DNA from: an uncultured Collinsella sp.
GTDB taxonomy: Bacteria > Actinomycetota > Coriobacteriia > Coriobacteriales > Coriobacteriaceae
Assembly (NCBI GenBank): GCA_900759335.1
Contig: CAAEUX010000102.1
Location: forward strand, 78,713-142,712
Length of the DNA stretch: 64,000 bases
Direction: 5' to 3'
The position numbers and the translations under genes are program-made. The notes below the pieces were generated by a model that was not told the origin of the DNA, made no database searches, and saw only the letters and a program-made list of their open reading frames with translations. Below are positions 3,690 to 64,000 of the stretch, piece by piece (position 1 is the first letter of the stretch; every line of letters begins with the position of its first letter).

Positions 3690-3698
3690 GAGGTTGCG

Positions 3699-17637: not shown

Positions 17638-17640
17638 GCC

Positions 17641-19737
17641 ATGGCAGACGCTAAGGATTTCCTGTTTGAGATCGGTACGGAGGAAATGCCCTCCGCACCG
17701 TTGAACAATGCCGTCAAGCAGCTTGGCACCATGATCGCCAAGGGCCTCGACGAGGCTGGTCTGGCCCATGGGGAGGTCCGCGTGATCTCGAGCCCGCGTC
17801 GTCTGGCTGCGCTCGTGGCCGACGTCGCCACTGCGACCGATGAGGTCCATGAGGTCAAGCGTGGCCCCGCGGCCAACATTGCCTTCGACGCTGACGGTAA
17901 CGCCACCAAGGCCGCCCAGGGCTTCGCCCGCAAGTGCGGTGTGGCTGCCGAGGATCTGGTCCGTCGCGAGGACACCGACGGCCGTGAGTACGTCTTTGCC
18001 GAGAAGAACATCCCTTCCGCCCCGGCCACCCCGATCCTGACGGCCCTGTGCGAGAAGACTATCGCTGGCCTGCAGTGGCCCAACTACCGCTCTCAGCGCT
18101 GGGGTCACGAGCATGCGACCTTTGTTCGTCCGGTCCGCTGGATCTGCTGCCTTTTGGGCGAGGATGTCGTGCCCGTGTCGTTTGCCGACGTGACGAGTGG
18201 CAACACCACGCGTGGTCATCGCGTGCTTGGCCCCGGTGACCATGTGGTCGCCAGCCCCGCCGTCTACGAGCAGGTGCTCGAGGACGCCGGCGTGCTTTCT
18301 GCCGAGCGCCGTCGCGAGGTCATCCTTGCCGGTATCGCCGAGGTCGAGGCTGCCCGTCCCGGCTGCCATGTCGATACGCCCAAGAAGGTCTTTGAGGAGG
18401 TCATCAACCTCTGCGAGTGGCCGACGGTGCTCGTCGGTACCTTCGATGAGGAGTTCCTCAAGGTCCCTCACGAGATCATCTGCGAGTCCATGCTCACCAA
18501 CCAGCGCTACTTCCCGATCTATGACGGCGAGGGCAAGCTCACGCGTGAGTTCGTGGTCGTCTCCAACAGCAAGCCCGAGAACGCCGAGCGCGTGATCGAC
18601 GGCAACGAGCGCGTTGTGCGTGCCCGTCTGGACGATGCCAAGTTCTTCTACGAGGAGGACCTGAAGATCTCCCTCGACGAGTTCCGCGAGCGTCTGGCCA
18701 AGGTCGCCTTCCAGGAGAAGCTCGGTAGCGTGCTCGCCAAGTCCGAGCGCATTGAGCAACTCGCGCTTGCCATCGCTCGCGAGGCCCATCTGGGCGCCCA
18801 CCTGGCCGCCGATGCCGCTCGCGCCGCGCACCTGTGCAAGGCCGACTTGGTATCCAACGCCGTCGTCGAGTTCACGAGCCAGCAGGGCGTGATGGGCGGT
18901 TACTACGCCACCGCGATGGGGGAGAACGACGAGGTCGCCCACGCCATTCGCGATCATTATCGTCCCCGCTTTGCCGGTGACGAGCTGCCCGAGGGCACCG
19001 CTGGCTGCATCGTGGCCTGCGCCGACAAGCTCGATACCATCGCCGGTATCTTTGCCATTGGCGAGCCCCCGACCGGCTCCTCCGACCCCTACGCGCTGCG
19101 TCGTGCCGCTATCGGCATCATCAACATCCTGCGCGACCGTCTGCCGATCGACCCCACATCGCTCATCGACTTCGCCCTCGAGCTCTATAGCGAGCAGGGC
19201 ATTGAGTTCGACGCCGCCGAGGTCGCCCAGCAGGTTCGCGACTTCTTCCATGGCCGCCTGGTGAGCATGGCCCGCGACGAAAAGATCCCGGCCGATACCG
19301 TTGCCGCCGTCTCTGCGGTGCACATCATCGCCCCGTCCGTCTTCTTCGCCCGCTGCGCCGCCCTCGACGAGGCCCGCAAAAACGATGCCGAGACCTTTGA
19401 CAACCTGGCTACGGCCTATGCCCGTGCCGCGCATATCTCCAAGCCCGAGCTGGGCGCGGAGTACGACCGCAGCCTGATGGGCGAGGCCGAGCTCGCGCTT
19501 GCCGATGCTTCCGAGGCTGCTCAGACTGCTGTCGATGCCGCCCTTGCTGCCGAGGACTACCCGGCCGCATTTGCCGCCCTCGCCGCCCTGCGCGCGCCCA
19601 TCGACCGTTTCTTCGATGAGGTCATGGTCATGGACAAGGACGAGCAGCTCCGCGATAATCGCCTTAAGCTGCTCAACCGCTTCGAGGCCGTTTTCTCCGG
19701 CATCGCAAACATCGGTGAGCTTGCTCGCAAAAAGTAA
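17641..19737 (+). CDS. glyS: Glycine--tRNA ligase beta subunit
   Basis: 698 aa immediately after glyQ. N-terminal MxxKDFLFEIGTEEMP and anticodon-binding C-terminal domain. Confidence 0.95.
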   Translation: MADAKDFLFEIGTEEMPSAPLNNAVKQLGTMIAKGLDEAGLAHGEVRVISSPRRLAALVADVATATDEVHEVKRGPAANIAFDADGNATKAAQGFARKCGVAAEDLVRREDTDGREYVFAEKNIPSAPATPILTALCEKTIAGLQWPNYRSQRWGHEHATFVRPVRWICCLLGEDVVPVSFADVTSGNTTRGHRVLGPGDHVVASPAVYEQVLEDAGVLSAERRREVILAGIAEVEAARPGCHVDTPKKVFEEVINLCEWPTVLVGTFDEEFLKVPHEIICESMLTNQRYFPIYDGEGKLTREFVVVSNSKPENAERVIDGNERVVRARLDDAKFFYEEDLKISLDEFRERLAKVAFQEKLGSVLAKSERIEQLALAIAREAHLGAHLAADAARAAHLCKADLVSNAVVEFTSQQGVMGGYYATAMGENDEVAHAIRDHYRPRFAGDELPEGTAGCIVACADKLDTIAGIFAIGEPPTGSSDPYALRRAAIGIINILRDRLPIDPTSLIDFALELYSEQGIEFDAAEVAQQVRDFFHGRLVSMARDEKIPADTVAAVSAVHIIAPSVFFARCAALDEARKNDAETFDNLATAYARAAHISKPELGAEYDRSLMGEAELALADASEAAQTAVDAALAAEDYPAAFAALAALRAPIDRFFDEVMVMDKDEQLRDNRLKLLNRFEAVFSGIANIGELARKK

Positions 19738-19771
19738 GCTAGCCTGCGCATAAGCGCAAAAGGAGCCCCGC

Positions 19772-20647
19772 ATGGATTGCCCGGTCACCGCTCGTCCCAC
19801 CGTTATCGTTATCTCCGACTCGCTCGGCGATACCGCTTGTGAGGTGGTGCTTGCGGCGTCCGGGCAATTTGATGAAGGGGCTTTTCGCGTTTTACGTCTG
19901 CCCAAGGTGACTTCCGTGGAGCAGGTCAAGTCGTTTGTGGGTCCGCGCGTCGATGCCGATCATCGCGATATTGCCGTGTTCCACACCATTGTCGATCCGG
20001 CGCTTCGCGCCCGTGTGCTCGATTACCTGGGCATGCTGCATATCCGTTCGGTCGACCTGATCGGCCCGACGCTCGCCGTGCTGTCGTCGCTCATCGGTGT
20101 GCCGCCCAAGGGCGTTGCGGGCGTGATTCACAAGACCGATGACCGCTATTTCCATCGTATCGAGGCCATGGAGTATTTCGTTGGGCACGATGACGGGCGC
20201 GGCTGCGACGATCTGTCGGGTGCCGATATCGTGCTGCTGGGCGTATCGCGCACGTCCAAGACGCCGCTGTCGATGTATTTGGCCTATCAGGGCTACAAGG
20301 TCGCCAATGTCCCACTGGCGCATGGCATGGAGCCGCCCAAGTCGATTTACGAGGTCGACCCGATGCGCCTGTTCGGCCTGATTTCGACCGTCGATGTGAT
20401 TTCCGAAATTCGCGATAGCCGCTTGGGCGATGACTACGCTCGTGCCGTTGCCGGCTCCTATGCCGAGCCCGAGAGCGTGCACAGCGAGCTCGAGGAAGCT
20501 CGCGCCCTCATGAAGCGTCTAGGCTGCTTTGTGGTGCGTACCGACGGCAAGGCCATCGAGGAAAGCGCCTCCGAGATCATTAGCCACTTGGAGGAAATCC
20601 AAGAAGTCCGTGCCCGCCGCGCCGCCCGTCGAGCCCAGCAAAAGTAG
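19772..20647 (+). CDS. Pyruvate, phosphate dikinase regulatory protein (bifunctional kinase/pyrophosphorylase, DUF299)
   Basis: P-loop-like GVSRTSKTPLSMYLAYQGYKVANVPL is characteristic of PDRP/PpsR. Sits directly upstream of ppdK. Confidence 0.85.
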   Translation: MDCPVTARPTVIVISDSLGDTACEVVLAASGQFDEGAFRVLRLPKVTSVEQVKSFVGPRVDADHRDIAVFHTIVDPALRARVLDYLGMLHIRSVDLIGPTLAVLSSLIGVPPKGVAGVIHKTDDRYFHRIEAMEYFVGHDDGRGCDDLSGADIVLLGVSRTSKTPLSMYLAYQGYKVANVPLAHGMEPPKSIYEVDPMRLFGLISTVDVISEIRDSRLGDDYARAVAGSYAEPESVHSELEEARALMKRLGCFVVRTDGKAIEESASEIISHLEEIQEVRARRAARRAQQK

Positions 20648-20988: not shown

Positions 20989-23739
<2,751 letters not shown>

Positions 23740-27371: not shown

Positions 27372-28303
27372 TGGCTGAGGGGACCTTCGAGCTGCATCCA
27401 GGTGACGCGTTGTATCCCGAGACCGTTTTGGAGCTTTCTGATGTACCCCAGACGCTATATGTGCGCGGCAATCCCGAGGTGCTTTCGACACCCGCGCTCT
27501 CCATCATCGGCGCGCGCAAGGCCTCGCCGTATGGTCTTGCCGTGGCAGAGCTTGCGGCGAAGGTGGCGGTTGAGGCGGGAGTGACGGTAGTTTCGGGCGG
27601 TGCGGTCGGTTGTGACCAGGCCTCGGGTTGGGCTGCGGTCAACGCCGGCGGCAAACACGTTGTGGTGCTGGGGACGGGCGCCGACGTGGTCTACCCGCGT
27701 TCGAGCGCGGGGCTGATTACGCGCACGCTTGATACGGGTGGCGCGGTCGTGTCGATCTCTCCGTGGGGCATGGGTCCGCGCAAGTTCGCCTTTCCGCGCC
27801 GCAATCGCGTAATCGCGGCCCTGTCGCAAGCCCTCTTTGTATCCGAGGCGGGTATGCCTTCTGGGACGTTTTCTACAGCCGAGGCTGCTATGGATTTGGG
27901 GCGCGAACTTCTTGCCGTGCCGGGGTCGATCCTATCGCCCGAGTCGCGTGGCACGAATTACCTCATTGCGAACGGTGCCTGCTGCATCGTCGACGAGGAA
28001 TCTATCGAGATGGCTATCTCACGCATCTACGGAACCCTGCGCTACTCGCGCCCCGATGCTCCCGGCATTGCCGACCTAGATCCAACGCAGCAGACCGTGA
28101 TGCATGCGCTCATCGCCTCTCCGCTCAAGGTCGACGACATCGCGGCGCTCGTCTCGCTCGATGCTGTCGGCGTACTCAAACTCTTGGGTTCGCTTGAACT
28201 CGAGGGCCTTATCGAGCGCATGATGGATGGAAGGTATGCGCCCTCCAAGTTTGCCCTTCACGCCCAGACACCCTTCGGTCACAATGGAAAACGTGTCAAT
28301 TAG
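27368..28303 (+). CDS. dprA: DNA-processing protein A (Smf; Rossmann-fold ssDNA/RecA loader)
   Basis: LSIIGARKASPYGLAVAELAAKVA...VVSGGAVGCDQAS...VLGTGADVVYP is the canonical DprA core. ATGATG overlap with the comM stop. Confidence 0.9.
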   Translation: MMAEGTFELHPGDALYPETVLELSDVPQTLYVRGNPEVLSTPALSIIGARKASPYGLAVAELAAKVAVEAGVTVVSGGAVGCDQASGWAAVNAGGKHVVVLGTGADVVYPRSSAGLITRTLDTGGAVVSISPWGMGPRKFAFPRRNRVIAALSQALFVSEAGMPSGTFSTAEAAMDLGRELLAVPGSILSPESRGTNYLIANGACCIVDEESIEMAISRIYGTLRYSRPDAPGIADLDPTQQTVMHALIASPLKVDDIAALVSLDAVGVLKLLGSLELEGLIERMMDGRYAPSKFALHAQTPFGHNGKRVN

Positions 28304-30683: not shown

Positions 30684-30791
30684 CACGCACGCGCGGCTAC
30701 TTCATACCGTGGTGCCCGGGCTTTGGTAGCACATGTCCGGGTTGGTTTTGGAGGATGACCCCGCGCGGAGGCAAACCACAGGAGGTTTAAC

Positions 30792-31520
30792 ATGGCTACC
30801 AAGATTAATATCCGCACCCTGCTCGAGGCCGGCTGCCACTTCGGTCACCAGACCCGTCGCTGGAACCCTAAGATGAAGCCGTTCATCTTCGGTGAGCGCA
30901 ACGGCATCTACATCCTCGACCTCAAGCAGACCATCCTCGACGCCGACCAGGCCTACACCTTCGTCAAGAACGTCGCCAAGGGTGGCAACGTGCTGTTCGT
31001 CGGCACCAAGAAGCAGGCTCAGGAGGCCGTCAAGAACGCTGCTGAGCGCGCCAACATGCCCTACATTAACCAGCGTTGGCTCGGCGGTATGCTGACCAAC
31101 TTCGTCACCATCCGCTCCCGCATCAACCGCATGGAGGAGCTCGAGGCCATGGTCGAGGACGGCCGCATGGCTGTTCTGCCCAAGAAGGAGCAGGCTGTTC
31201 TCGGCAAGGAGCTCACCAAGCTCCAGACCAACCTCGGTGGCGCTCGCGACATGAAGGGTCTGCCCCAGGCTCTCTTCGTCATCGACACCAAGCGCGAGGA
31301 GAACGCCATCAAGGAGGCTCAGCGCCTGAACATTCCCGTCGTCGCTCTGATCGACACCAACTCCGATCCCGACGAGGTCGAGTACGGCATCCCCTGCAAC
31401 GATGACGCTATCTCCGCTGTCACCCTTATGTGCGAGCTCATGGCTGACGCCTGCCTCGCTGGCTCCGGCAAGGAGCAGGTCTCCGAGGCCGAGATGGCCG
31501 CTGAGCCCAAGGCCGAGTAA
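30792..31520 (+). CDS. rpsB: 30S ribosomal protein S2
   Basis: [28 protein letters not shown]... is canonical S2. Confidence 0.95.
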
Positions 31521-31565
31521 ATCAGTCTTAGTTAATTCTTTTTCATCTCTTTGAAAGGAACCACA

Positions 31566-32435
31566 ATGGCCCAGATTACCGCCGCTATGGTCAAGCAGCT
31601 CCGCGAGATGACCGACTCCCCGATGATGGAGTGCAAGAAGGCTCTCGTCGAGGCTGACGGCGACATGGACGCCGCTGTTGACGTTCTGCGCAAGAACGGC
31701 CTTGCCAAGGCTGCCAAGAAGGCTGGCCGTGAGACCAACGAGGGCGCTGTCGCCGCATTCGTCTCCGAGGATGGCAAGACCGGCGCTCTGCTCGAGCTCT
31801 CCTGCGAGACCGACTTCGTTGGCTCCAACGCCAAGTTCACCGGCTTTGCTTCCAAGGTCGCTGAGGTTGTCGCCACCACCGAGCCGGCCGATGTCGACGC
31901 TCTGCTCGAGAAGCCGATGGGCGAGGAGACCGTTTCCTCCGAGCTCACCGAGATGATTCACATCATGGGCGAGAACATGAAGATCTCCCGTTTCGCTGCC
32001 CGCAAGGCTGAGAACGGCGCGCTCGCTTCTTACATCCACATGGGTGGTAAGATCGGCGTCCTCGTCGAGTTCGCCTTCGAGAAGGCCGAGACCGCTCAGG
32101 CTGAGTCCTTCAAGACCTTCGCTCACGACGTTGCCCTTCAGGTTGCTGCCGTCGCCCCGATCTGCGCTACCCGCGATCAGGTTCCGGCCGAGACCGTCGA
32201 GCACGAGAAGCAGATCTACATGGCCCAGGCTGCCGAGTCCGGCAAGGCCGAGGCTATCCAGGAAAAGATGGCTGTCGGCCGTCTGGAGAAGTTCTACAAG
32301 CAGTCCGTGCTCACCGAGCAGGAGTTCATCAAGGACAGCTCCCTCACCATCAAGAAGTACGCTGAGCAGGTCTCCAAGGAGCTCGGCGACACCATTACCG
32401 TCGTTGCCTTTGACCGTCTGGTCCGTGGCGAGTAA
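31566..32435 (+). CDS. tsf: Elongation factor Ts
   Basis: MAQITAAMVKQLREMTDSPMMECKKALVEADGDMDAAVDVLRKNG is the canonical UBA-like N-terminus. ATG at 31566 (AAAGGAA RBS), not the track's TTG at 31551. Confidence 0.95.
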   Translation: MAQITAAMVKQLREMTDSPMMECKKALVEADGDMDAAVDVLRKNGLAKAAKKAGRETNEGAVAAFVSEDGKTGALLELSCETDFVGSNAKFTGFASKVAEVVATTEPADVDALLEKPMGEETVSSELTEMIHIMGENMKISRFAARKAENGALASYIHMGGKIGVLVEFAFEKAETAQAESFKTFAHDVALQVAAVAPICATRDQVPAETVEHEKQIYMAQAAESGKAEAIQEKMAVGRLEKFYKQSVLTEQEFIKDSSLTIKKYAEQVSKELGDTITVVAFDRLVRGE

Positions 32436-38099: not shown

Positions 38100-39182
38100 T
38101 TGTCTTTATCCCATCCTTTGCCTCGCGAGTTGACGCGCCCCGTGCATGTGGGCGGTGTGCAGATCGGTGGCGGCGCGCCGGTGGTGGTCCAATCCATGAC
38201 CTGCACTGATACCGCTGATGCCCAGGCAACGCTTGCGCAAGTGTGCGCGTTGGCGCAGGCTGGCTGCGATATCGTGCGTGTGAGCGTGCCCACCGAGGCC
38301 GCGCTTGAGGGTTTCCGCATCATCTGTGCCGAGTCTCCGGTGCCGATCGTCGCCGATATTCACTTTAACCATAAGCTCGCCATCGGCGCCGTCGAGGCTG
38401 GTGCCGCCAAGCTTCGCATCAATCCCGGCAATATCGGCGATTGGGCTAAGGTCGATGCCGTGATCGATGCCGCGGGCGCCGCTGGGTGCGCGATTCGTAT
38501 CGGCGTCAATGCCGGTTCGCTCGAACAGGATATCGCCGAGCGCGACGACCTCACGCAGCCCGAAAAGCTCGTGATGTCGAGCGAGCGCTTCGTCAAGCAC
38601 TTTGAGGACCGCGGCTTTACGAACATTGTGCTTTCGGCCAAGGCCCATAGCGTGCAAACGACGCTTGATACCTATCGAGCCCTGTCGCGTGAGATTCCCC
38701 ACGTTCCGCTTCACCTGGGCGTGACGGAGGCGGGGACCAAGCTCCAGGGCACCATCAAGAGCTCTGTAGGCTTGGGTATCTTGCTTTCCGAAGGCATTGG
38801 CGACACCATGCGTGTGTCGCTCACAGCCGATCCGGTTGAGGAGCCGCCGGTTGCCTGGGGTATTCTGCAGTCGCTGGGCCTGCGTCGCCGTGGTCCCGAG
38901 ATTGTCTCGTGCCCCACGTGCGCCCGCTGCCAGGTTGACCTCATTCCCATTGCCGAGGAGGTCACCGAGCGGCTTAAGAACTACTCCGCGCCACTTTCGA
39001 TCGCTGTGATGGGATGTGCCGTTAATGGCCCCGGCGAGGCTTCCGACGCCGACCTAGGCGTGGCCTGTGGACGAGGTCAGGCCCTGCTCTTTTCGCATGG
39101 CCAGATCATTGGTAAAGTAGCTGAGGATCAAATTGTCGACGCGCTGATGGCTGAGGTCGACAAACTTATTGAGGAGAAGTAA
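38100..39182 (+). CDS. ispG: 4-hydroxy-3-methylbut-2-en-1-yl diphosphate synthase (flavodoxin) IspG/GcpE
   Basis: TIM-barrel N-terminal domain (VHVGGVQIGGGAPVVVQSMT) and [4Fe-4S] Cys triad (CPTCARC...GCAVNGPGE). TTG at 38100 has GGGGA 9 nt upstream. The track ORF at 38013 overlaps rseP and is unlikely. Confidence 0.9.
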   Translation: MSLSHPLPRELTRPVHVGGVQIGGGAPVVVQSMTCTDTADAQATLAQVCALAQAGCDIVRVSVPTEAALEGFRIICAESPVPIVADIHFNHKLAIGAVEAGAAKLRINPGNIGDWAKVDAVIDAAGAAGCAIRIGVNAGSLEQDIAERDDLTQPEKLVMSSERFVKHFEDRGFTNIVLSAKAHSVQTTLDTYRALSREIPHVPLHLGVTEAGTKLQGTIKSSVGLGILLSEGIGDTMRVSLTADPVEEPPVAWGILQSLGLRRRGPEIVSCPTCARCQVDLIPIAEEVTERLKNYSAPLSIAVMGCAVNGPGEASDADLGVACGRGQALLFSHGQIIGKVAEDQIVDALMAEVDKLIEEK

Positions 39183-41938: not shown

Positions 41939-44587
41939 CTAGCAGACGGCGTAATCCTGGGGCTCGCGGCCGTAGTAGGCGTCCAGGTAGAGCTCCTTGA
42001 TCTCGCTCATGAGCGGGTAGCGCGGGTTGGCGCCGGTGCACTGGTCGTTGAATGCCTGCTCGGTCATTTCGTCGAGGGTGTCGAGGAAGTACTGCTCGTC
42101 AACACCGTAGTCAGCGATGGTCTTCTTGACGCCGATGAAGTCCTTGAGCTCTTCGAGCTTCGTGATGAAGTTCTCGAAGACCTCCTTGTCGTCCTTGCCC
42201 TCGATGCCGCAGTACTTGGCCATCTCGGCGTAGTTGTGCAGCGCGTTGGGGTAAGGATACTGGGAGAAGGTACCCATCTTGACGGGAGCCTCGGCGGCGT
42301 TGTAGCGCATGACGCGGGTCAGGATGACAGCGTTTGCGAGGCCGTGGGGCAGGTGATGGAAAGCGCCGAGCTTGTGGGCCATGGAGTGGTTGAGGCCCAG
42401 GAAGGCGTTGGCGAAGGCCATACCGGCCATGCAGGAGGCGTTGTGCATCTCCTCGCGGGCGTGCGGGTCCTTGGCGCCGTTCGTGAAGCTGGAGGGCAGG
42501 TTCTCGAAGACGAGCTTGGCAGCGCGCTCGGAGAGGCCCTTGGTGTAGTCGGAAGCCATGATGGAGACGTAGGACTCGATGGCGTGGGTCATGACGTCGA
42601 TGCCGGAGGCAGCGGTCAGGCCGCGCGGGGCGGTCATGCAGTTGTCGGCGTCGACGATAGCCATGTTGGGGAGCAGCGCGTAGTCGGCGAGCGGCCACTT
42701 GATGCCGGTCTCCTTGTCGGTGATGATGGCGAACGGCGTGCACTCGGAGCCGGTACCCGAGGAGGTCGGGACGGCGACGAAGTAGGCCTTCTTGCCCATC
42801 TCGGGGAAGGTGAAGATACGCTTGCGGATGTCCATGAAGTCCATGGCCATGTCCTCAAACTTGCACTCGGGGTGCTCGTACATCATCCACATGATCTTGC
42901 CGGCGTCCATAGCGGAGCCACCGCCGACGGCGATGATGACGTCCGGCTCAAAGAGAGCCATCTGCTTGGCGCCGCGACGTGCGCACTGCAGCGACGGATC
43001 GGGCTCGACGTCGTAGAAGCAGTCGTGGGCGATGCCCATCTCGTCGAGCTTGGCCTCGATGGCGCGGGTGTTGCCATTCTTGAAGAGGAACTGGTCGGTG
43101 ACGATGAAGGCGCGCTTCTTGCCCATGACGTTGCCCAGCTCGTCGAGGGCGACGGGCGTGGAACCCTTCTTGAAGTAGACCTTCTCGGGAGCGCGGAACC
43201 ACAGCATGTTCTCACGGCGCTCGGCCACAGTCTTAACGTTGATCAAGTGCTTCACCCCAACGTTCTCGGAGACGGAGTTGCCGCCCCAGGAGCCGCAGCC
43301 CAGGGTCAGAGACGGCTTCATGCCAAAGTTGTACAGGTCACCGATGCCGCCGTGCGAGGACGGGGTGTTGATGACGATACGGCAGGCCTTCATGACGTGC
43401 TCGAACAGGCTGATCTTCTCGGCCTGGGCGGGGTGCACATACAGAGAGGCGGTGTGGCCCGGGCCACCGGCGAGCACGAGGTGCTCGGCCTTGTCGACGG
43501 CCTCCTGGAAGTCCTTGGCGTGGTACATGGCCAGGACCGGGGAGAGCTTCTCGTGGGAGAACTCCTCCTTGGCGGGGTCGGTGGAGGTGACCTCGGCGAT
43601 CAGGATCTTGGTCTTGGCGGGAACCTCGATGCCGGCGAGCTCGGCGATCTTGGCAGCGGCCATGCCGGGGATGCGGTGATCGAGAGCGCCGTTCTTGAAC
43701 ATGGCGGCACGCAGGGCCTCCATCTCGGCACCCTGCTTGACGAAGTAGCAGCCGCGCTTCTGGAACTCGGCCTTAACCTGGTCATAGATGCTGTCGATTA
43801 CGGTCACGGACTGCTCGGAAGCGCAGATCATGCCGTTGTCGAAGGTCTTGGAGTGGATGATGGAGTTGACGGCGAGCAGCACGTCGGCGGTGTCGTCGAT
43901 GACGACCGGGGTGTTACCGGCGCCAACGCCCAGGGCGGGCTTGCCCGAGGAGTAAGCGGCCTTGACCATGCCCGGGCCACCGGTGGCGAGGATGATGTCG
44001 ACGTCGCGCATGACCATGTTAGTCAGCTCGATGGAGGGGACATCGACCCAGCCGATGATGCCCTCGGGGGCGCCGGCCTTGACGGCGGCGTCAAGCACGA
44101 GCTTGGCGGCGGCGATGGTGCACTTGGCGGCAGCCGGGTGCGGGGAGATGATGATGGCGTTGCGGGTCTTCAGGCAGATCAGCGTCTTGAAGATCGCGGT
44201 GGAGGTGGGGTTGGTCGTCGGGATGACGGCGCCCACGATGCCGATGGGCTCGGCGATCTTGGTGATGCCGTAAGCCTCGTCGCGCTCCAGGACACCACAG
44301 GTCTTGGTGTTCTTGTAAGCGTTGTAGATGTACTCTGCGGCGTAGTGGTTCTTGATGACCTTGTCCTCAAGAACGCCGCGGCCGGTCTCCTCGATGGCCA
44401 TCTTCGCCAACGGGATACGAGCCTTGTTGGCGGCCATGGCGGCCTCATAGAAGATCTTGTCGACCTGCTCCTGCGTGTACGTAGCAAAAAGCGCCTGGGC
44501 CTCTCGCATCTGAGCGAGCTTGGCCTCAAGCGCCTCTACGTTGTCCACAATTGCGGGAGTAGTGTTTTCCGGTGACTTTTTCACCAT
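41939..44587 (-). CDS. adhE: Bifunctional acetaldehyde-CoA / alcohol dehydrogenase
   Basis: 882 aa. N-terminal ALDH domain and C-terminal Fe-ADH domain with a GGG NAD-binding linker. The N-terminus (...AIVDNVEALEAKLAQMREAQALFATYTQEQVDKIF) is typical AdhE. Confidence 0.95.
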   Translation of the reverse strand: MVKKSPENTTPAIVDNVEALEAKLAQMREAQALFATYTQEQVDKIFYEAAMAANKARIPLAKMAIEETGRGVLEDKVIKNHYAAEYIYNAYKNTKTCGVLERDEAYGITKIAEPIGIVGAVIPTTNPTSTAIFKTLICLKTRNAIIISPHPAAAKCTIAAAKLVLDAAVKAGAPEGIIGWVDVPSIELTNMVMRDVDIILATGGPGMVKAAYSSGKPALGVGAGNTPVVIDDTADVLLAVNSIIHSKTFDNGMICASEQSVTVIDSIYDQVKAEFQKRGCYFVKQGAEMEALRAAMFKNGALDHRIPGMAAAKIAELAGIEVPAKTKILIAEVTSTDPAKEEFSHEKLSPVLAMYHAKDFQEAVDKAEHLVLAGGPGHTASLYVHPAQAEKISLFEHVMKACRIVINTPSSHGGIGDLYNFGMKPSLTLGCGSWGGNSVSENVGVKHLINVKTVAERRENMLWFRAPEKVYFKKGSTPVALDELGNVMGKKRAFIVTDQFLFKNGNTRAIEAKLDEMGIAHDCFYDVEPDPSLQCARRGAKQMALFEPDVIIAVGGGSAMDAGKIMWMMYEHPECKFEDMAMDFMDIRKRIFTFPEMGKKAYFVAVPTSSGTGSECTPFAIITDKETGIKWPLADYALLPNMAIVDADNCMTAPRGLTAASGIDVMTHAIESYVSIMASDYTKGLSERAAKLVFENLPSSFTNGAKDPHAREEMHNASCMAGMAFANAFLGLNHSMAHKLGAFHHLPHGLANAVILTRVMRYNAAEAPVKMGTFSQYPYPNALHNYAEMAKYCGIEGKDDKEVFENFITKLEELKDFIGVKKTIADYGVDEQYFLDTLDEMTEQAFNDQCTGANPRYPLMSEIKELYLDAYYGREPQDYAVC

Positions 44588-45279: not shown

Positions 45280-45639
45280 AACTGACCCTCCTTGGGCGAC
45301 AAACGAACATGTCGCGTTAACAAACAAGCCTGAACTATAGCACAGAAGCAGATCCCTGTACGTAATCTACACAGAGATATTTCTCTTTTGGCGATAGTGC
45401 CCACGCCACGGCCCTGGACGTAGATCCGATTTGCGTGCAGCAGAGGGGATTATGCCAGCTCGCAACAAGGTTTTCAAGCTCGTCCCACAAATATATATAG
45501 GTTTATTGAGCGTTGGGCTCCGTTTACGGATTGCTCCGTATTTATGCTCGCAATTGAGCTCGAGGTTGGCTACACTATCCCTTGACCATTAAAGGGGTAC
45601 GAGATACCCACATGGAATTACATAGCTGCCATAGAGCAG

Positions 45640-45700
45640 CCCTTCCTGTGGGTGTCTGGTCCGCTTTGAGCGGTCGGGCATCTATTTTTTTGACTGTGTC
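45640..45700 (+). promoter_or_regulatory. Candidate PyrR-responsive leader / attenuator upstream of pyrR
   Basis: GC-rich stem (GGTCCGCTTTGAGCGG...) followed by ATCTATTTTTTT just 36 nt before the pyrR ATG. An upstream CATAGAGCAGCC loosely resembles the PyrR-binding-loop AGAGAGGC motif. Confidence 0.35.
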
Positions 45701-45718
45701 AGCAGTCAAGACATGTGA

Positions 45719-46315
<597 letters not shown>

Positions 46316-51602: not shown

Positions 51603-52172
51603 GTGAGCGCTCAGGATTCCAAGCTCTTTGTGATTTCTGGACCGTCAGGCGCAGGCAAGGGTACGCTCGTCACTCGTGTGCGCGAGCGCCGCTCGAACCT
51701 GGGCCTGACGGTTTCGGCTACCACGCGAGCACCACGCAAAGGTGAGGTCGACGGCGTCAACTACTTTTTTCTGACGCGCGAGGAGTTCGACCGCCGCGTG
51801 GCAAACGGTGAGTTTGTTGAGTGGGCCGAGGTCCACGGTAACTGCTACGGCACGTTGGTGAGCGAGGTCACATCCAAGCTCGCCTCTGGCGCATCTCTGA
51901 TTTTGGAGATCGATGTCCAGGGCGCCCTGCAGGTGAAGGAGCGTTTCCCCGAGGCCGTGCTGATCTTTATCAAGCCGCCTTCGCTTGAGGTGCTCCGCGA
52001 GCGTCTAGTCGGTCGCGGTACCGAGACGCCCGAGACGATTGAGCTGCGTATGGCAAACGCCGCCGATGAGCTTGCCCTTGCCGACCGCTACGACGACGTC
52101 GTGGTTAATGACGATCTCGACCGCGCGACCGATGAGCTCGTTCGCGTTCTCGATATGCATGAAAGGATCTGA
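51603..52172 (+). CDS. gmk: Guanylate kinase
   Basis: P-loop GPSGAGKGT and the GMP-binding region. GTG start abutting the mihF stop. Confidence 0.95.
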   Translation: MSAQDSKLFVISGPSGAGKGTLVTRVRERRSNLGLTVSATTRAPRKGEVDGVNYFFLTREEFDRRVANGEFVEWAEVHGNCYGTLVSEVTSKLASGASLILEIDVQGALQVKERFPEAVLIFIKPPSLEVLRERLVGRGTETPETIELRMANAADELALADRYDDVVVNDDLDRATDELVRVLDMHERI

Positions 52173-52177
52173 GGTCC

Positions 52178-52459
52178 GTGTCCGTTGTAAAGCCTTGCAT
52201 TGACGATCTTCTGGAGAAGACCGATCACAACCGCTTCCTGCTTGCTTCGCTTGCCTCCAAGCGCGCCTGCGATATTAACAGCATGCTGCGTGGCCAGCAC
52301 AACCGCGTGCTTGCCGTCCAGGATGTCGATGACATCACCATCGGGCTTTCCGGTGCCGATACCATTTCGATGGCTATGGACGAGATTGTCGACGGCGACA
52401 TCTCTTACGACGAGGCCCGTTACGAGAAGGCGCTCGGCCACAAGGTTGCTGAAGCCTAA
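52178..52459 (+). CDS. rpoZ: DNA-directed RNA polymerase subunit omega
   Basis: ...NRFLLASLASKRACDIN... is the canonical omega core. Confidence 0.9.
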   Translation: MSVVKPCIDDLLEKTDHNRFLLASLASKRACDINSMLRGQHNRVLAVQDVDDITIGLSGADTISMAMDEIVDGDISYDEARYEKALGHKVAEA

Positions 52460-53704
52460 ATGGCGGCTCGCGTCTGCCTGGTCCACTATCACGAGGTTGG
52501 ACTGAAGGGTAAGAACCGCGCACATTTTGAGCATATCCTCATGGATAACATCAAGGCGGCCTTGGCCGCCTTTTCCGTGAATGCCGTGTCTCGAATTTCC
52601 GGTTATATCCTCGTGACCTTTAACGAGCATCAGGCCGACGAGGCGGCGCGTGTCATTCGCACCGTTCCCGGCGTTGCTCGTGTGTCTTTGGCGTATCACA
52701 CCAATCGCGACCCTCAGGAGTACTGTGCCGCCGCCGTGAAGGCGCTGCGCGAGTTTGGTTCCTTCGATTCGTTTAAGGTGCACGCCAAGCGCTCCAATAC
52801 CGATTATGAGCTCACCTCGATTGACATCAATCGTCAGGTGGGCGAGGTGCTGTGCGAGGCCTTCCCCGATAAAAAGGTTCAAATGCACGACCCCGATGCG
52901 ATGGTGCACGTACTGGTGGTCCAGGGTAGCGTTTATGTGTACGCGCGCTCCGAGCGCGGCGTGGGCGGTCTGCCGGTGGGTTCTGCCGGCAAGGTCGTGA
53001 CGCTGCTGTCGTCGGGTATTGATTCTCCGGTGGCAACCTGGATGCTCGCGCGTCGCGGCGCGGTGTGCGTGCCGGTACATTTCTCGGGTCGTCCGCAGAC
53101 GCCCGACACGAGCGAGTATTTGGTGCAGGACATCATTCGTGCGCTTGAGCCGGGTGTCCAGATCGGCCGCCTGTACGTGGTGCCGTTTGGCGACTGCCAG
53201 CGTGAGATTTCGGTCACCTGTCCCAGCAACCTGCGCGTGATCATGTATCGCCGCATCATGTATTCGGTTGCCGAGCGTATCGCGCATATCGAGGGCGCCA
53301 AGGCCATCGTGACCGGCGAGTCGCTCGGTCAGGTTGCCTCCCAGACGCTCGAGAATATCATGGCCGTCAACGAGGCCGTGAAGATTCCCGTGTTCCGTCC
53401 GCTCATCGGGTCCGACAAGCAGGAGATCATTGCGCGCGCTCAGGAGATCGGCACGTTCGATATTTCCACCGAGGCGGCGCCCGACTGCTGCACGCTGTTT
53501 ATGCCGCGTCGTCCCGAGACGCACGCCAAACTCGATGCCGTGCACGAGGCCTGGGAGCTGTTCGACCACGAGGAGATGATCGAGCGTCTGCTTAAGCAGA
53601 CCGAGTACATTGACTTCTCCAGCAACACGTATAAGGCCCCTAAGACCTTAAAACGCAAACATTCGGAGCTTGCTCCGCGTGAGATTTACCAAGATCACGA
53701 GTAA
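52460..53704 (+). CDS. thiI: tRNA 4-thiouridine(8) synthase / tRNA sulfurtransferase ThiI
   Basis: THUMP-like N-terminus and PP-loop SGGIDSPVA (VVTLLSSGIDSPVATWM). Confidence 0.9.
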   Translation: MAARVCLVHYHEVGLKGKNRAHFEHILMDNIKAALAAFSVNAVSRISGYILVTFNEHQADEAARVIRTVPGVARVSLAYHTNRDPQEYCAAAVKALREFGSFDSFKVHAKRSNTDYELTSIDINRQVGEVLCEAFPDKKVQMHDPDAMVHVLVVQGSVYVYARSERGVGGLPVGSAGKVVTLLSSGIDSPVATWMLARRGAVCVPVHFSGRPQTPDTSEYLVQDIIRALEPGVQIGRLYVVPFGDCQREISVTCPSNLRVIMYRRIMYSVAERIAHIEGAKAIVTGESLGQVASQTLENIMAVNEAVKIPVFRPLIGSDKQEIIARAQEIGTFDISTEAAPDCCTLFMPRRPETHAKLDAVHEAWELFDHEEMIERLLKQTEYIDFSSNTYKAPKTLKRKHSELAPREIYQDHE

Positions 53705-60284: not shown

Positions 60285-61328
60285 ATGGCGCTTTCTGAAT
60301 ACAGCAAGCGGCTGCTGGGCGCTTATGCCGAGCAGCCGTTCCTTATGGCTCCCATGGCGGGCGTGACCGACCCTGCCTACCGCATCATGTGCCGCCGCCG
60401 CGGTGCCAACCTTGCCTACAGCGAGATGGTGAGCGTGGCGGGCCTTGCCTATGCCAGCAACAAGACCTGGCGCCTGGTGCTACCGGCCGACGAGGAGCAG
60501 CAGATTTGCGTGCAGCTCTTTGGCTCCAAGCCCGATCAGTTTGCGAGCGCCGTCGCCGCCGTCGAGGAGCGCGTTGGCGATCGCCTGTCGCTCATCGACA
60601 TCAACATGGCCTGTCCTGCCCGCAAGGTTGTCACCAAGGGCGAAGGCTCGGCCCTTATGCGCACGCCCGATTTGGCCGAGAAGATCGTCGAGGCCACGGT
60701 GGGCGCGGCTCACGTGCCCGTGACCGTAAAGATCCGCAAGGGCTTTTACGCCGAGGACCGTAATGCCGCAACGTTTGCCCAGATGCTCGAAGGGGCGGGC
60801 GCCTCCGCAGTTGCCGTGCACGGTCGTTGTGCCACGCAGCTCTATACGGGGCAGGCCGATTGGTCTGTCGTCGATGAGGTCGCAGATGCTGTCGAGATTC
60901 CCGTGATTGGTTCGGGCGATGTGTTCTGCGCCGAGGATGCCGCGGAGCATCTGCGCAGTTCTGGTGCCAGCGCGGTGTTTATCGCGCGCGGCATCTACGG
61001 TAATCCCTGGGTCTTTGGTGATGCTCGCGCCCTTGCGCTCGATGGCATACCGGTGCCGGCGCGCAGCTCCGTCGAGCGCCTGGACGCCCTGCGTGAACAC
61101 CTAACGCTGACGCACGAGCTTCTGCCGCTCATGTCGCGTGCCCGCACGTACGCAAGCTGGTACTTAAAAGGCATGCCCCATGCCGCCGCTTGGCGTGCCC
61201 ATGTGGTGCGCTGTTCCACATACGAGGAGTTTATGGTGCTGGTCGATGAGATCGAGCGCGATGTGGTGGCCTGCGAGGCCGCACTTGCCGCCGGCGAATC
61301 GGTGCCCCCTCATCCGCTGGAGGCTTAA
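60285..61328 (+). CDS. dus: tRNA-dihydrouridine synthase (DusB-like)
   Basis: MAPMAGVTDPAYRIMCRRRGANLAYSEMV... FMN TIM barrel, with conserved catalytic Cys region (INMACPA). Confidence 0.85.
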   Translation: MALSEYSKRLLGAYAEQPFLMAPMAGVTDPAYRIMCRRRGANLAYSEMVSVAGLAYASNKTWRLVLPADEEQQICVQLFGSKPDQFASAVAAVEERVGDRLSLIDINMACPARKVVTKGEGSALMRTPDLAEKIVEATVGAAHVPVTVKIRKGFYAEDRNAATFAQMLEGAGASAVAVHGRCATQLYTGQADWSVVDEVADAVEIPVIGSGDVFCAEDAAEHLRSSGASAVFIARGIYGNPWVFGDARALALDGIPVPARSSVERLDALREHLTLTHELLPLMSRARTYASWYLKGMPHAAAWRAHVVRCSTYEEFMVLVDEIERDVVACEAALAAGESVPPHPLEA

Positions 61329-61330
61329 GG

Positions 61331-62563
61331 GTGGCCGTTACCACGCTGTACGTGCACGTGCCGTTTTGCGCTCAAAAGTGCCGGTACTGCGACTTTGACT
61401 CGCGCAGTTTTGCTCCGTGCGACCTGAGCGCTGCGCTCGATGCCTATTTTGAGCAGTTGTACGCGCGCCTCGATGCTTTTGGCAAAGCTGGGGCCCTTGA
61501 CCAGATCCGCACCGTCTATGTTGGCGGCGGTACGCCGTCGCTGGCGGGGGAGCGCTTGGTGGAGCTGGCGCGGCGTATTCGTGCGTCGTGCGCCCCTGTT
61601 GAGTTTACCTGCGAGGCCAATCCTGAGTCGCTGACCGCCGAGCTTGCCGCTGCGCTTGCCAAGGTTGGTGTCACACGCGTCTCTCTGGGCGTGCAAACGC
61701 TCGATAACACCGAACTTACCGCCATCGGCCGTATTCACGATGCCGATCGGGCGCTCGCCGCCATCGCGACGGTCAAGAACGCTGGGCTTGACGTGTCGTG
61801 CGACCTTATGTGCGGACTTCCCGGGCAGACCGCAGCGAGTTGGAAGCGCACGCTCGATGGCGTGCTGGCGGCGGCTCCGCATCATGTGTCGGTCTACCCG
61901 CTCACGCTTGAGGAGGGGACGCCCCTTTATCGCATGGCGTGCCGCGACGAGTTGCTCGAGCCTGATGAGGATTTTCAAGCTTCGTGCATGGATGTGGCGC
62001 GTGAGCGTCTGGGTGCGGCCGGTTATCACCCCTATGAGGTGGCAAGCTATGCGCTCGACGGCCATGAGTGCGCCCATAACATTGCCTACTGGACCGGACG
62101 GGGCTACCTGGGCCTGGGTCGTTCTGCCGCGGGCATGCTCGACGCCGAGGATTTCGACCGTCTTGCAGGTTTGTTTCCCGGTGTTTCTTCTCGAGGCGAT
62201 GCGTACCGCGTGCGTCTGGTGCAACGTTACGATGACGCGACGGCGTTCGAGACCGAATATCTGTCGCAGCGTGAGGCTGCGGCTGAAGACCTGATGCTCG
62301 CTTGTCGCATGACGCGCGGTGTCGCGTCCGACCTGTTGGTTCGTGCAGCTTGCGTCATCCCAGCGGGTGAGCTGGCAGCCGCTTGCGATCGCGCACTCGA
62401 ATTGGGTCTTGTCACTTGGGTTCCCGAGACGCTCGGGGTCCATGAGGGACCCTTCACTTCGGCAGATGTCGTCGCGGGCCATGTTCGAGCTCGTCTGGCG
62501 CCGACACACCTGGGCTGGCTCGATGGAAATGTTCTGTTCGAACTGTTTTGGGATCTAGCTTAG
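61331..62563 (+). CDS. hemW: Radical SAM heme chaperone HemW (oxygen-independent coproporphyrinogen-III oxidase-like)
   Basis: LYVHVPFCAQKCRYCDF (CxxxCxxC) and the GGGTPS motif. Typical position downstream of lepA. Confidence 0.9.
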   Translation: MAVTTLYVHVPFCAQKCRYCDFDSRSFAPCDLSAALDAYFEQLYARLDAFGKAGALDQIRTVYVGGGTPSLAGERLVELARRIRASCAPVEFTCEANPESLTAELAAALAKVGVTRVSLGVQTLDNTELTAIGRIHDADRALAAIATVKNAGLDVSCDLMCGLPGQTAASWKRTLDGVLAAAPHHVSVYPLTLEEGTPLYRMACRDELLEPDEDFQASCMDVARERLGAAGYHPYEVASYALDGHECAHNIAYWTGRGYLGLGRSAAGMLDAEDFDRLAGLFPGVSSRGDAYRVRLVQRYDDATAFETEYLSQREAAAEDLMLACRMTRGVASDLLVRAACVIPAGELAAACDRALELGLVTWVPETLGVHEGPFTSADVVAGHVRARLAPTHLGWLDGNVLFELFWDLA

Positions 62564-62621
62564 GTCGCTCGTGTAGAATTACCGGAATATATACGCTGCT
62601 GTGAGCAGGAGGTTGCCGCGC

Positions 62622-63725
62622 ATGGCGACGATGAACGAAAAAGATTACTACGAGATTCTGGGTGTCTCCAAGGACGCCACCTCGCGTGATATTCAAAAGG
62701 CCTTCCAGCAAAAGGCCCGCAAGCTCCATCCGGACGTCAACAAAGAGCCGGATGCCGAGGAAAAGTTTAAAGAGGTTTCCGAGGCCTACGCCGTGCTTTC
62801 GGACGAGCAGAAGCGTTCGCGCTACGACGCCATGCGTTCGGGCAACCCCTTCGCCGGCGCTCCTACGGCTTCGCCCTATGGCGGCGGCTACGCCGGTAGC
62901 GCGGGCTATGGCAATCCCTTTGAGGGCGGTTTTCCCTTTGGTGGCGCCTGGGGCCAGCCGCGTCGCGGGCAGGCTGCCTACAATCCCGAGAACGGCGCCA
63001 ACGTGGTCGTCGATATCAAACTCGACGCCAAGGAGGCCAAGGGCGGTGCCCGCAAGACCGTCCGCTACACGCGCTTCGACACTTGTGGTCACTGCGGCGG
63101 CTCGGGCTCCGTTTCGTCTGAGCATGCCCATACCTGCCCGAGCTGCGGTGGCCGCGGCCACATCGACGTTGACCTGTCCTTCCTGTTTGGTGCAGGCACG
63201 TTCCAGTCGGTCTGCCCCGAGTGCGGCGGTTCCGGTAAGGTCGTGGCCGACCCCTGCCCTGATTGCGGTGGCAGCGGTCGTACTCGCGTAACCTCCGAGC
63301 AGACGATTGAGTTTCCCGCCGGCACGCACGATGGCGACGAGGTCCGCATTAGCGGCATGGGGCATGCTGGCACCAACGGTGCCGCGGGCGGCGACCTGGT
63401 CGGCCGCGCCCATGTTGAAGCCGAGCGCTTGGAAGGCAAAGCTCGTACCGGTTTTTACCTGATGGGCATCGTGGCGCCGTTTTTGGTGCTGTCGGCCATT
63501 TCGGGCGTGTTCTCGGCCTTTGCCGTGATGTGCTTTATTCCGTTTACCATGGGCCTGTTTATGGTGCTTTCGGACGGTGTGCTTCATCGTAGTCTGCTGT
63601 GGTGGAAGCGCGGTGCGATGCAGTTTGCCAACGGTTTTGCCAACGGCTTCATGTTCGCGCTCGTGTCGGTTTGGTTCGCGAGCTGCTCGCAACGTGCCAT
63701 GCTTTCGCCCTACGCAATGCAATAA
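62622..63725 (+). CDS. Atypical DnaJ-like protein: J-domain, G/F-rich linker and 4x CxxCxGxG zinc finger, with a predicted hydrophobic C-terminal membrane anchor replacing CTD-II and the dimerisation domain.
   Basis: HPD motif ([10 protein letters not shown]). Zinc-finger repeats [36 protein letters not shown]. Two long hydrophobic segments near the C-terminus ([39 protein letters not shown] and [21 protein letters not shown]). AGGAGG RBS 9 nt before the ATG at 62622. Confidence 0.8.
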
Positions 63726-63806
63726 CATCAAACCCTCTGTTTGCGGTCGGCCCAGCTTGGGTATAGGACGCACTGTGACAATAATGAAAGTCGGAAGGAT
63801 TCGGTC

Positions 63807-64000
63807 GTGTCGGAAAATAGGGATTACTACGAGGTACTTGGCGTCGACAAGGATGCCGACGCGCGGACGATTAAGCGCGCGTTTCTAAAGAAGGCCCGTA
63901 CCGTACACCCGGACGTTTCGGACGACCCCGAGGCCGAGGCCAAGTTCAAGGAGCTCAACGAGGCCTATTCCGTTCTTTCCGATGAGCAGAAGCGTGCTAA
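63807..64000 (+). CDS. dnaJ: Canonical chaperone DnaJ; only the N-terminal 64 codons are present, as the gene is truncated by the window end.
   Basis: GTG start gives [64 protein letters not shown], a textbook J-domain. GGAAGGA RBS. Confidence 0.85.

Follow-up and report, generated by a model that had tools for sequence, protein, structure and literature searches.

A class A-type DnaJ paralogue of Coriobacteriales with a conserved, putatively membrane-embedded C-terminal domain

The 64,000-nucleotide stretch of DNA analysed here, referred to as the window, derives from an uncultured Collinsella sp. (GenBank assembly GCA_900759335.1, contig CAAEUX010000102.1, positions 78,713 to 142,712) and encodes, immediately upstream of dnaJ, a 367-residue paralogue of DnaJ that we designate TMJ. 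The protein retains the J-domain, the Gly/Phe-rich (G/F) linker and the first, zinc-finger-bearing C-terminal domain (CTD-I) of a class A DnaJ, and has three hydrophobic helices in place of the second C-terminal domain (CTD-II) and the dimerisation domain. This architecture is conserved in Coriobacteriaceae and Atopobiaceae, where the gene keeps its position between hemW and dnaJ, and the tail is under purifying selection. We propose that TMJ probably derives from a class A DnaJ and acts as an integral-membrane co-chaperone of the J-domain type, recruiting the Hsp70 DnaK to the membrane at its cytoplasmic face. The gene and its parts are listed below; helices and strands are those of an AlphaFold2 (AF2) model, whose local confidence is given as the predicted local distance difference test (pLDDT).

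62622-63725, + strand: whole TMJ gene, a putatively membrane-anchored DnaJ paralogue of 367 residues, stop codon included (list of open reading frames (ORFs) and translation)
62643-62828, + strand: J-domain, residues 8-69, with HPD at residues 36-38 (62727-62735) (Pfam PF00226, E 1.3e-25)
62847-62996, + strand: Gly/Phe/Tyr/Pro-rich linker, residues 76-125 (14 G, 4 F, 4 Y and 7 P in 50 residues)
62997-63083, + strand: N-terminal strands of CTD-I, residues 126-154 (DnaJ_C match from residue 129; AF2 strands 128-134 and 143-154, pLDDT about 90)
63084-63278, + strand: zinc-finger-like region with four CxxCxGxG repeats, residues 155-219 (Pfam PF00684, DnaJ_CXXCXGXG, E 1.8e-13)
63279-63425, + strand: C-terminal strands of CTD-I, residues 220-268 (AF2 strands 220-231, 240-243 and 259-265; DnaJ_C and TIGR02349 alignments end at 266-269)
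63450-63503, + strand: predicted transmembrane (TM) helix 1, residues 277-294 (Kyte-Doolittle 1.8-2.3; Hessa -0.8 to +3; AF2 helix 273-294, pLDDT 84-96)
63516-63572, + strand: predicted TM helix 2, residues 299-317 (AF2 helix 299-317)
63573-63623, + strand: conserved basic loop, residues 318-334, predicted cytoplasmic and interfacial (mean of 3.0 K/R in 17 members)
63624-63689, + strand: helix 3, residues 335-356 (AF2 helix 325-366, pLDDT 86-96; Hessa +4.0 for the window from residue 338)
63690-63722, + strand: C-terminal tail, residues 357-367, from the alignment, predicted to be extracytoplasmic if helix 3 spans the membrane

Results

TMJ retains the N-terminal half of a class A DnaJ

As an earlier note made from the bare sequence had described, TMJ has a normal HPD-containing J-domain, a G/F linker and all four CxxCxGxG repeats. 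In an alignment of 49 orthologues the HPD residues (H36, P37 and D38), the signature residues of helices II and IV, among them the basic ones of helix II, and the KRxxYD motif are invariant, and a Foldseek search against the PDB superimposed the J-domain on solved J-domains with a root-mean-square deviation of about 1.2-1.5 Å. Judged from its sequence, the J-domain carries every signature needed for Hsp70 stimulation. The linker is disordered in the model between residues 78 and 119 (pLDDT <50).

The CxxCxGxG repeats occupy residues 155-162, 172-179, 198-205 and 212-219, and all eight cysteines are invariant in the 49 orthologues. Residues 220-268, which complete CTD-I, include a family-specific G[HN]AGTNGxxxGD motif and end in a conserved ERL junction. 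The fold of CTD-I and the zinc finger matches, again by Foldseek against the PDB, that of S. pneumoniae DnaJ (6jzb; 36% identity), DNAJA2 and Ydj1 (1nlt). The earlier proposal that the DnaJ sequence is replaced after the start of CTD-I thus stands with respect to CTD-II and the dimerisation region, which are gone, but CTD-I itself is complete rather than merely begun. The Pfam check suggested for this loss gave a DnaJ_C match limited to profile positions 2-73 of 152, which correspond to CTD-I alone. The bacterial DnaJ model TIGR02349 (DnaJ_bact) aligns residues 8-269 with profile positions 1-260 of 354, at 244.7 bits against a cut-off of 377.2, and TMJ therefore falls below the threshold of that family. 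Both the Pfam and the NCBIfam alignments stop at the boundary between CTD-I and CTD-II, and TMJ lacks this second β-sandwich; residues 270-367 form three hydrophobic helices instead of a C-terminal dimerisation domain.

The tail has the sequence properties of a membrane domain

The AF2 model was built from the 49-sequence alignment (mean pLDDT 79.7) and replaces a model from the single sequence (pLDDT 49). It presents the tail as three helices, residues 273-294, 299-317 and 325-366, with pLDDT values of 84-96. The two hydrophobic segments of about 40 and 22 residues reported earlier are recovered on the Kyte-Doolittle scale (residues 277-317 and 335-356); the first, however, contains a hairpin, so that the tail comprises three helices rather than two, and the third is only marginally hydrophobic. 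Residues 277-317 form a run of 41 residues without charge and with Kyte-Doolittle values of up to 2.35. On the position-independent Hessa scale, summed over 19-residue windows, values lie between -0.8 and +3 kcal/mol within residues 276-318 and reach +4.0 kcal/mol for the best window of helix 3, compared with lowest sums of +9.9 in the soluble part of TMJ and +10.6 in the canonical DnaJ. In 17 family members the segment just preceding TM1 has on average 2.7 Lys and Arg residues, loop 1 has none and loop 2 has 3.0, a distribution that fits the positive-inside pattern and is kept in these members. From the lack of charge, the modelled helices and the basic residues in loop 2 we infer that the tail segments behave as transmembrane helices. 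The earlier note had considered that they might prove to be non-membrane segments, to which the charge-free helices and the positive-inside pattern are opposed. The predicted topology places the N-terminus in the cytoplasm, followed by a tight hairpin with its turn outside and a basic, Trp-rich loop at the cytoplasmic interface, while the third helix would either span the membrane or be partly buried in it.

Specific residues of the tail are conserved. In helix 1 both G282 and P286 are invariant, and the turn that joins it to helix 2 (residues 295-298) consists of four uncharged residues predicted to face outwards. Loop 318-334 carries the motif HRSxLWWKRG, in which W327 is invariant up to the most distant members. 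Helix 3 contains a small-xxx-small motif, G338-x3-G342, and G338 is invariant in the wide alignment. Tail alignments are nearly gapless down to about 23-25% identity, with G282, W327 and G338 invariant throughout. Cys355 (63684-63686), which by the predicted topology lies at the outer, distal end of helix 3, is also invariant in the 49 orthologues, and in most of the distant members its equivalent forms part of an ‘SC' pair; possible roles are disulfide formation, metal binding or simple packing. Some Atopobiaceae members (P0189, P0181 and P0184) have no ‘SC' after helix 3 and carry a fourth hydrophobic stretch with an RRS or RRQQ end (alignment columns 96-125). Their sequences suggest a four-helix variant with a cytoplasmic C-terminus, which fits the same topology scheme.

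No known domain was recognised in the tail. Residues 270-367 match no Pfam family at E≤1 and no NCBIfam model at E≤0.1, and a tail profile searched against PDB sequences gave a best E of 0.34, its weak matches including transmembrane segments (VAMP2, AcrB). In the Foldseek search against the PDB the tail remained unmatched, all listed matches being DnaJ, Hsp40 or J-domain structures. An association of the TM2 domain with DnaJ has been noted (PMC3861447); a fusion to that domain (PF05154) was rejected for TMJ, given the Pfam result for residues 270-367. The stlA salt-tolerance locus described in the same paper was likewise set aside, being an unrelated Akkermansia-like region.

The TMJ gene is intact and its tail is under selection

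A frameshift that on correction restores DnaJ_C had been named in advance as one of the findings that would overturn the unusual architecture. When the canonical CTD-II and dimerisation region was compared with positions 63201-63900 in every frame (tblastn), there was no match at E≤10; a frameshifted or mis-assembled dnaJ with a normal DnaJ_C was therefore rejected, there being no trace of CTD-II in any frame. An origin of the tail from out-of-frame dnaJ was also rejected, as tblastn of the tail against every frame of six canonical dnaJ genes returned nothing below E 1. The exact 367-residue product occurs in 69 blocks of public assemblies, one of them a 2.3-Mb contig, and its 90%-identity cluster has 7901 members, which are named ‘DnaJ domain-containing protein [Collinsella aerofaciens]' or ‘molecular chaperone DnaJ'.

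The ratio of non-synonymous to synonymous substitution rates (dN/dS), calculated over 66 distinct full-length alleles, is lowest in the J-domain, at 0.025, and no other part of the protein is as constrained; CTD-I with the zinc finger has 0.089, the tail 0.119 and the linker 0.12. The tail is thus under purifying selection and, at 0.119 against 0.089, is about as constrained as the client-binding domain. Orthologues of the same architecture, some with a full-length identity of no more than about 48%, occur in genera of both Coriobacteriaceae and Atopobiaceae.

Some individual database records depart from this picture. Four metagenome protein records (P0014, P0026, P0034 and P0039) are frameshifted within the tail, and record P0165 is chimeric, with an internal duplication of the CTD-I/TM1-2 region. 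These are isolated assembly or sequencing errors, which could mislead an analysis of a single record.

TMJ is an old paralogue of Coriobacteriales

The window protein served as the reference for the definition of the TMJ family, and it has each of the defining elements: a J-domain, a G/F linker, a zinc-finger CTD-I with G[HN]AGTNGxxxGD, the ERL junction, a three-helix tail with WW(K/R), and a position between hemW and dnaJ. With the full-length protein as query, more than 100 clusters were recovered (58-98% identity, 97-100% coverage), the named matches being Collinsella ihumii, Coriobacterium glomerans PW2 and Coriobacteriaceae. When a profile was made from just the tail, it recovered only 38 representatives at E≤0.001 among 1.84 billion proteins; the 11 of these that were inspected are all fragments of the TMJ family or full-length proteins of 365-384 residues with the same architecture.

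The earlier note had recommended a search of Coriobacteriia for orthologues of the same architecture. A scan for G[HN]AGTNGxxxGD over one genome per GTDB species gave at least 120 loci, and 91 of the loci listed carry the tail; these belong to Collinsella, Enorma and Coriobacteriaceae and, within Atopobiaceae, to Olsenella, Olegusella, Parafannyhessea, Kribbibacterium, Tractidigestivibacter, Paratractidigestivibacter and Atopobium. Ordinary DnaJs, from Acidobacteriota, Clostridia, Mucispirillum and Treponema, account for the remaining 29 listed loci. A search started from a distant TMJ member led to Atopobium fossor, Olsenella profusa and further Atopobiaceae. Among the matches listed, all placeable TMJ members are Coriobacteriales (Coriobacteriaceae and Atopobiaceae), and none came from Eggerthellales.

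In a neighbour-joining tree of the shared region TMJ is monophyletic, with separate Atopobiaceae and Coriobacteriaceae branches, and is not nested among the neighbouring canonical DnaJs. Since the family is monophyletic and split along the two families of bacteria, it is an old paralogue that has been inherited vertically since at least their common ancestor. TMJ and the adjacent canonical DnaJ share 34% identity over residues 7-285, and their J-domains 65%. Two TMJ contigs carry unexpected names, L041 (CAVHBE010000134.1) being filed under a ‘Methanobrevibacter smithii' bin and L023 (CAVGNZ010000040.1) under a ‘Bacteroidaceae bacterium' bin. The neighbours of TMJ in L023 are Collinsella-like, and both names probably reflect binning contamination.

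TMJ occupies a conserved position next to dnaJ

The signals and genes that adjoin TMJ are as follows.

61331-62563, + strand: upstream neighbour, hemW-type radical SAM gene, 410 residues (Pfam Radical_SAM on the identical gene in six contigs, L001-L006)
62607-62612, + strand: Shine-Dalgarno sequence AGGAGG, read from the sequence, 9 nt before the ATG at 62622
63808-64000, + strand: start of the canonical dnaJ, truncated by the end of the window, with 64 codons visible

The N-terminus of TMJ is conserved, M1 being nearly invariant and M4 invariant among the 49 orthologues. The window is colinear with the six contigs L001-L006 at 94.6-96.5% identity, and in all six the downstream gene encodes a canonical DnaJ of 382 residues that matches the whole of DnaJ_C; in L001 the DnaJ and CXXCXGXG families are matched together with positions 3-152 of 152 of the DnaJ_C profile. 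The gene downstream of TMJ is a canonical dnaJ, just as the earlier note had it. A consensus scan of positions 61200-64000 gave no promoter-like site and two terminator-like sites, a number below the shuffled mean, and there was no consensus promoter or terminator between hemW, TMJ and dnaJ; it is possible that the three genes are co-transcribed.

All of the 16 non-redundant loci that were inspected share the gene order lepA-dus-hemW-TMJ-dnaJ-mtaB-like radical SAM-phoH-ybeY-dgkA-era-recO. In Bacillus and Mycobacterium the position after hemN/hemW is occupied by hrcA, followed by grpE-dnaK-dnaJ or by dnaJ2. The remark in the earlier note that TMJ sits in the hrcA slot, after lepA...hemW, is therefore fair as a statement of synteny, and the order is conserved across Coriobacteriales. 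No hrcA was present in the hemW-dnaJ slot of the 16 Coriobacteriales loci. The window also yielded no hrcA, as had been noted, and no dnaK, grpE, CIRCE, HAIR or further J-protein; an Hsp70 gene was likewise absent, both from the window and within 10 kb.

The interval between hemW and TMJ varies. Two Atopobiaceae loci (L049:2758-3267 and L063:1564-2052) contain a dCMP/CMP-deaminase-like gene of 162-169 residues there, an assignment that rests on an HAEANAI...PCHECAK motif read by eye, and L037, L111 and L117 have gaps of roughly 0.6-0.75 kb at the same position; Collinsella aerofaciens has no deaminase-like gene at this point. In L049, an Atopobium metagenome-assembled contig, a run of N, masked or unresolved, just 5' of the TMJ gene (3480-3740) makes the start and promoter unreadable.

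Discussion

In the mechanism that we favour, the J-domain, the G/F linker and the zinc-finger CTD-I would lie in the cytoplasm, and the chain would cross the membrane as a tight TM1-TM2 hairpin and return to the basic, Trp-rich interfacial loop, with the third, less hydrophobic helix packing against the hairpin. CTD-I and the zinc finger would bind proteins in or close to the membrane through their non-native segments; such clients might include the cytoplasmic domains of membrane proteins, proteins awaiting insertion or export, and membrane aggregates. The HPD-containing J-domain would then trigger ATP hydrolysis by DnaK, causing it to clamp these clients at the membrane, while the soluble DnaJ encoded next door would serve the bulk cytosol. 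The helical bundle could replace the lost self-association, through G338xxxG342, dock on a membrane machine, or do both. The tail is probably more than an anchor, since its conservation extends beyond hydrophobicity to G282, W327, G338, the G338xxxG342 motif, Cys355 and the basic loop.

Several points weigh against this proposal. Along with CTD-II and the dimerisation domain, TMJ has lost features considered important for general holdase activity in class A proteins. The DIF motif of E. coli DnaJ helps to regulate the DnaK cycle, and the linker of the neighbouring canonical DnaJ has both DIF85 and DLF94; the TMJ linker (residues 76-125) contained no such motif when D[IVL]F was looked for. The missing CTD-II and DIF weaken the case that the activity of TMJ is fully DnaJ-like. 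Helix 3, marginally hydrophobic at +4.0 kcal/mol and containing two Asn residues, may lie at the interface instead of spanning the membrane, in which case the C-terminus would be located elsewhere. Finally, our literature search, which did not cover the main survey of bacterial J-protein architectures, found no paper on the TMJ family, nor any that describes a class A DnaJ with a membrane anchor in bacteria, Collinsella or Coriobacteriia.

It could be argued that TMJ is a dedicated adaptor, whose bundle docks on one membrane machine, such as SecYEG/YidC, FtsH or an envelope synthesis complex, and delivers DnaK to that one client or complex, instead of serving membrane-proximal proteins in general. 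We regard this as rather unlikely, yet it deserves weight. Most specialised class C J-proteins act in this way (PMC8215388), the constraint on the TMJ tail is close to that on CTD-I, and the invariant W327, G282, G338 and C355, together with the HRSxLWWKRG loop, exceed what an anchor would need. The retention of CTD-I and the zinc finger, a generalist client-binding module, argues against such narrow service, as does the genomic neighbourhood, in which hemW, dnaJ, mtaB and phoH are present and no conserved membrane-protein gene adjoins TMJ; a membrane partner was not found in this analysis. A further alternative is that TMJ is a soluble protein, in which the C-terminal helices form a bundle that oligomerises it in the cytosol. 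A substitute for the missing canonical dimerisation domain is indeed required, helix 3 is of marginal hydrophobicity, and AF2 helices are silent on the lipid environment. Such a bundle is, however, difficult to reconcile with 41 consecutive uncharged residues that exceed 2 on the Kyte-Doolittle scale and lie near 0 on that of Hessa, or with the conserved positive-inside pattern and the WW/KR interfacial motif; moreover, the weak PDB matches of the tail include the transmembrane segments of VAMP2 and AcrB, and some family members add a fourth hydrophobic helix that ends in RR. We therefore consider a cytosolic bundle very improbable.

A regulatory role, in which TMJ senses membrane stress, sequesters or releases DnaK and so tunes a DnaK-dependent repressor such as HspR, is suggested by the place of its gene. 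It lies between hemW and dnaJ, where Bacillus and Mycobacterium have hrcA(-grpE-dnaK), and hrcA is missing from both the window and the 16 slots. This argument is purely positional, and the replacement of one gene by another in a syntenic block does not imply that the function has been replaced; furthermore, TMJ has no DNA-binding domain and the window has neither CIRCE nor HAIR. A regulator of this kind thus appears improbable, if slightly less so than the soluble bundle. That the gene is a pseudogene, or an artefact of a frameshifted or mis-assembled dnaJ, might be suspected from the tail frameshifts and the chimeric duplication in the five aberrant records, but we give this practically no credence in view of the lack of CTD-II similarity in any frame, the identical 367-residue product on many independent long contigs, the 66 distinct alleles with a tail dN/dS of 0.12, and the orthologues of the same architecture at about 48% identity. 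We return, then, to the view that TMJ is probably a membrane-integrated co-chaperone that brings DnaK to client proteins at the cytoplasmic face.

TMJ shares features with several characterized systems without coinciding with any of them. In common with canonical class A proteins, represented by E. coli DnaJ and TIGR02349, it has an HPD-containing J-domain, a G/F linker and a CTD-I with four CxxCxGxG repeats; in contrast to them, it lacks CTD-II, the dimerisation domain and DIF, has about 100 hydrophobic residues instead, scores below the TIGR02349 cut-off and forms its own clade. The earlier note stated that known membrane J-proteins are anchored at the N-terminus and have no zinc finger. This is true of E. 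coli DjlA, but the statement is incomplete, as DjlB and DjlC are anchored at the C-terminus and Ydj1 is a lipid-anchored class A protein. Similar to what is proposed for TMJ, DjlA is membrane-anchored, and its partner is DnaK; it differs in the reverse order of its parts, an N-terminal transmembrane helix and a C-terminal J-domain, and in lacking a zinc finger. The NCBIfam DjlA model (NF006948) covers only part of the TMJ J-domain, at 13.9 bits against a cut-off of 162.

Ydj1 and DNAJA1 are farnesylated class A proteins with a zinc-finger CTD-I and C-terminal membrane attachment, which assist membrane-associated clients. Unlike TMJ, Ydj1 keeps CTD-II and the dimerisation domain and carries its lipid on a CaaX box, whereas TMJ ends in ...LSPYAMQ, with no CaaX and its last Cys 13 residues from the end, and would be attached through an integral helical bundle. 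In the endoplasmic reticulum (ER), the membrane J-proteins Hlj1 and DNAJB12/DNAJB14 recruit cytosolic Hsp70 to the quality control of membrane proteins. Their N-terminal cytosolic J-domain, G/F-like region and downstream transmembrane segment resemble those of TMJ, but they have no zinc finger or CTD-I, possess a single transmembrane helix with DUF1977, and belong to an unrelated lineage (DNAJB12/B14 are mentioned in PMC10410713). Transmembrane helices are combined with a DnaJ-like CxxCxGxG zinc finger in the plant and algal membrane proteins OR (PMC12063368) and ZnJ6 (PMC7865324). These proteins, and LQY1, share this combination with TMJ; they have no J-domain, and so no means of driving Hsp70, and their domain order differs.

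DjlB and DjlC of E. coli resemble TMJ in having a cytoplasmic N-terminal J-domain and a C-terminal membrane anchor, and are thought to bring Hsp70 to the plasma membrane (PMC8215388). They differ from TMJ in having a single anchor helix, in lacking the G/F linker, zinc finger and CTD-I, and in pairing with a specialised Hsp70, HscC. BLASTP between TMJ and E. coli K-12 DjlC revealed no detectable similarity (best E 0.05 over 18 residues). Because DjlB and DjlC are already anchored at the C-terminus, the novelty of TMJ lies not in such anchoring but in the union of a zinc-finger CTD-I with a polytopic C-terminal domain. What appears to be undescribed is a conserved domain of this kind joined to the J-domain, linker and zinc-finger CTD-I of a class A protein and fixed throughout an order of bacteria.

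Membrane-tethered J-proteins decide where Hsp70 works. To our knowledge few are known in bacteria, namely DjlA, DjlB and DjlC, and all are class C. TMJ would represent a different route to the same end, in which a class A DnaJ has kept its zinc-finger client binding and exchanged CTD-II, the second domain that binds clients, and the dimerisation domain for a conserved polytopic membrane module. Together with the adjoining DnaJ it offers a natural pair for studying cytosolic versus membrane-proximal targeting of Hsp70, in Actinomycetota that are abundant in the human and animal gut, such as Collinsella, Olsenella, Atopobium and their relatives. A further step, doubtful at present, is that the bundle serves specifically for docking or oligomerisation and connects a class A-type DnaJ directly with a membrane machine (such as Sec/YidC or FtsH). 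If this were true, Coriobacteriales would have a dedicated membrane-integrated Hsp70 targeting factor for the biogenesis or quality control of membrane proteins, a bacterial counterpart of the eukaryotic ER-membrane J-proteins that evolved independently from DnaJ, and TMJ might double as a membrane-stress input to heat-shock regulation at the usual place of hrcA. The database names ‘molecular chaperone DnaJ' and ‘DnaJ domain-containing protein' hide the membrane domain, and could mislead counts of DnaJ copies that are based on orthology.

Other features of the window

The window is ordinary core chromosome. Its genes are, in order, mreC, PBP2, rodA, obg, nadD, dinB, rimM, lepB, glyQS, ppdK, rnhB, trmFO and xerC, followed by rpsB-tsf-pyrH-frr, cdsA, dxr, rseP, proS, adhE, pyrC, pyrD, thiI, comEA, comEC, holA, rpsT and lepA. 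Between lepA and hemW lies a gene for a tRNA-dihydrouridine synthase (Dus; 60285-61328, + strand), an arrangement kept across the Coriobacteriales loci. The pyruvate phosphate dikinase gene (20989-23736, + strand) has a bifunctional kinase/pyrophosphorylase regulator 5' of it (19772-20644, + strand), and adhE is at 41942-44587 on the - strand.

Five ORFs of 144-309 residues, at 1034-1603 (+), 4944-5870 (+), 27763-28194 (+), 45578-46219 (-) and 38109-38714 (-), had no Pfam match at E≤1e-5. The first is probably mreD, from its position after mreC, and the 309-residue ORF after rodA is uncharacterised. Long antisense ORFs (394-881 residues) lie over genes of the + strand at 62454-63773, 61325-62509, 17284-19929, 30702-32204 and 52088-53569, all on the - strand; the three that were scanned had no Pfam match. 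These ORFs are not genes and are typical of DNA with 61% G+C.

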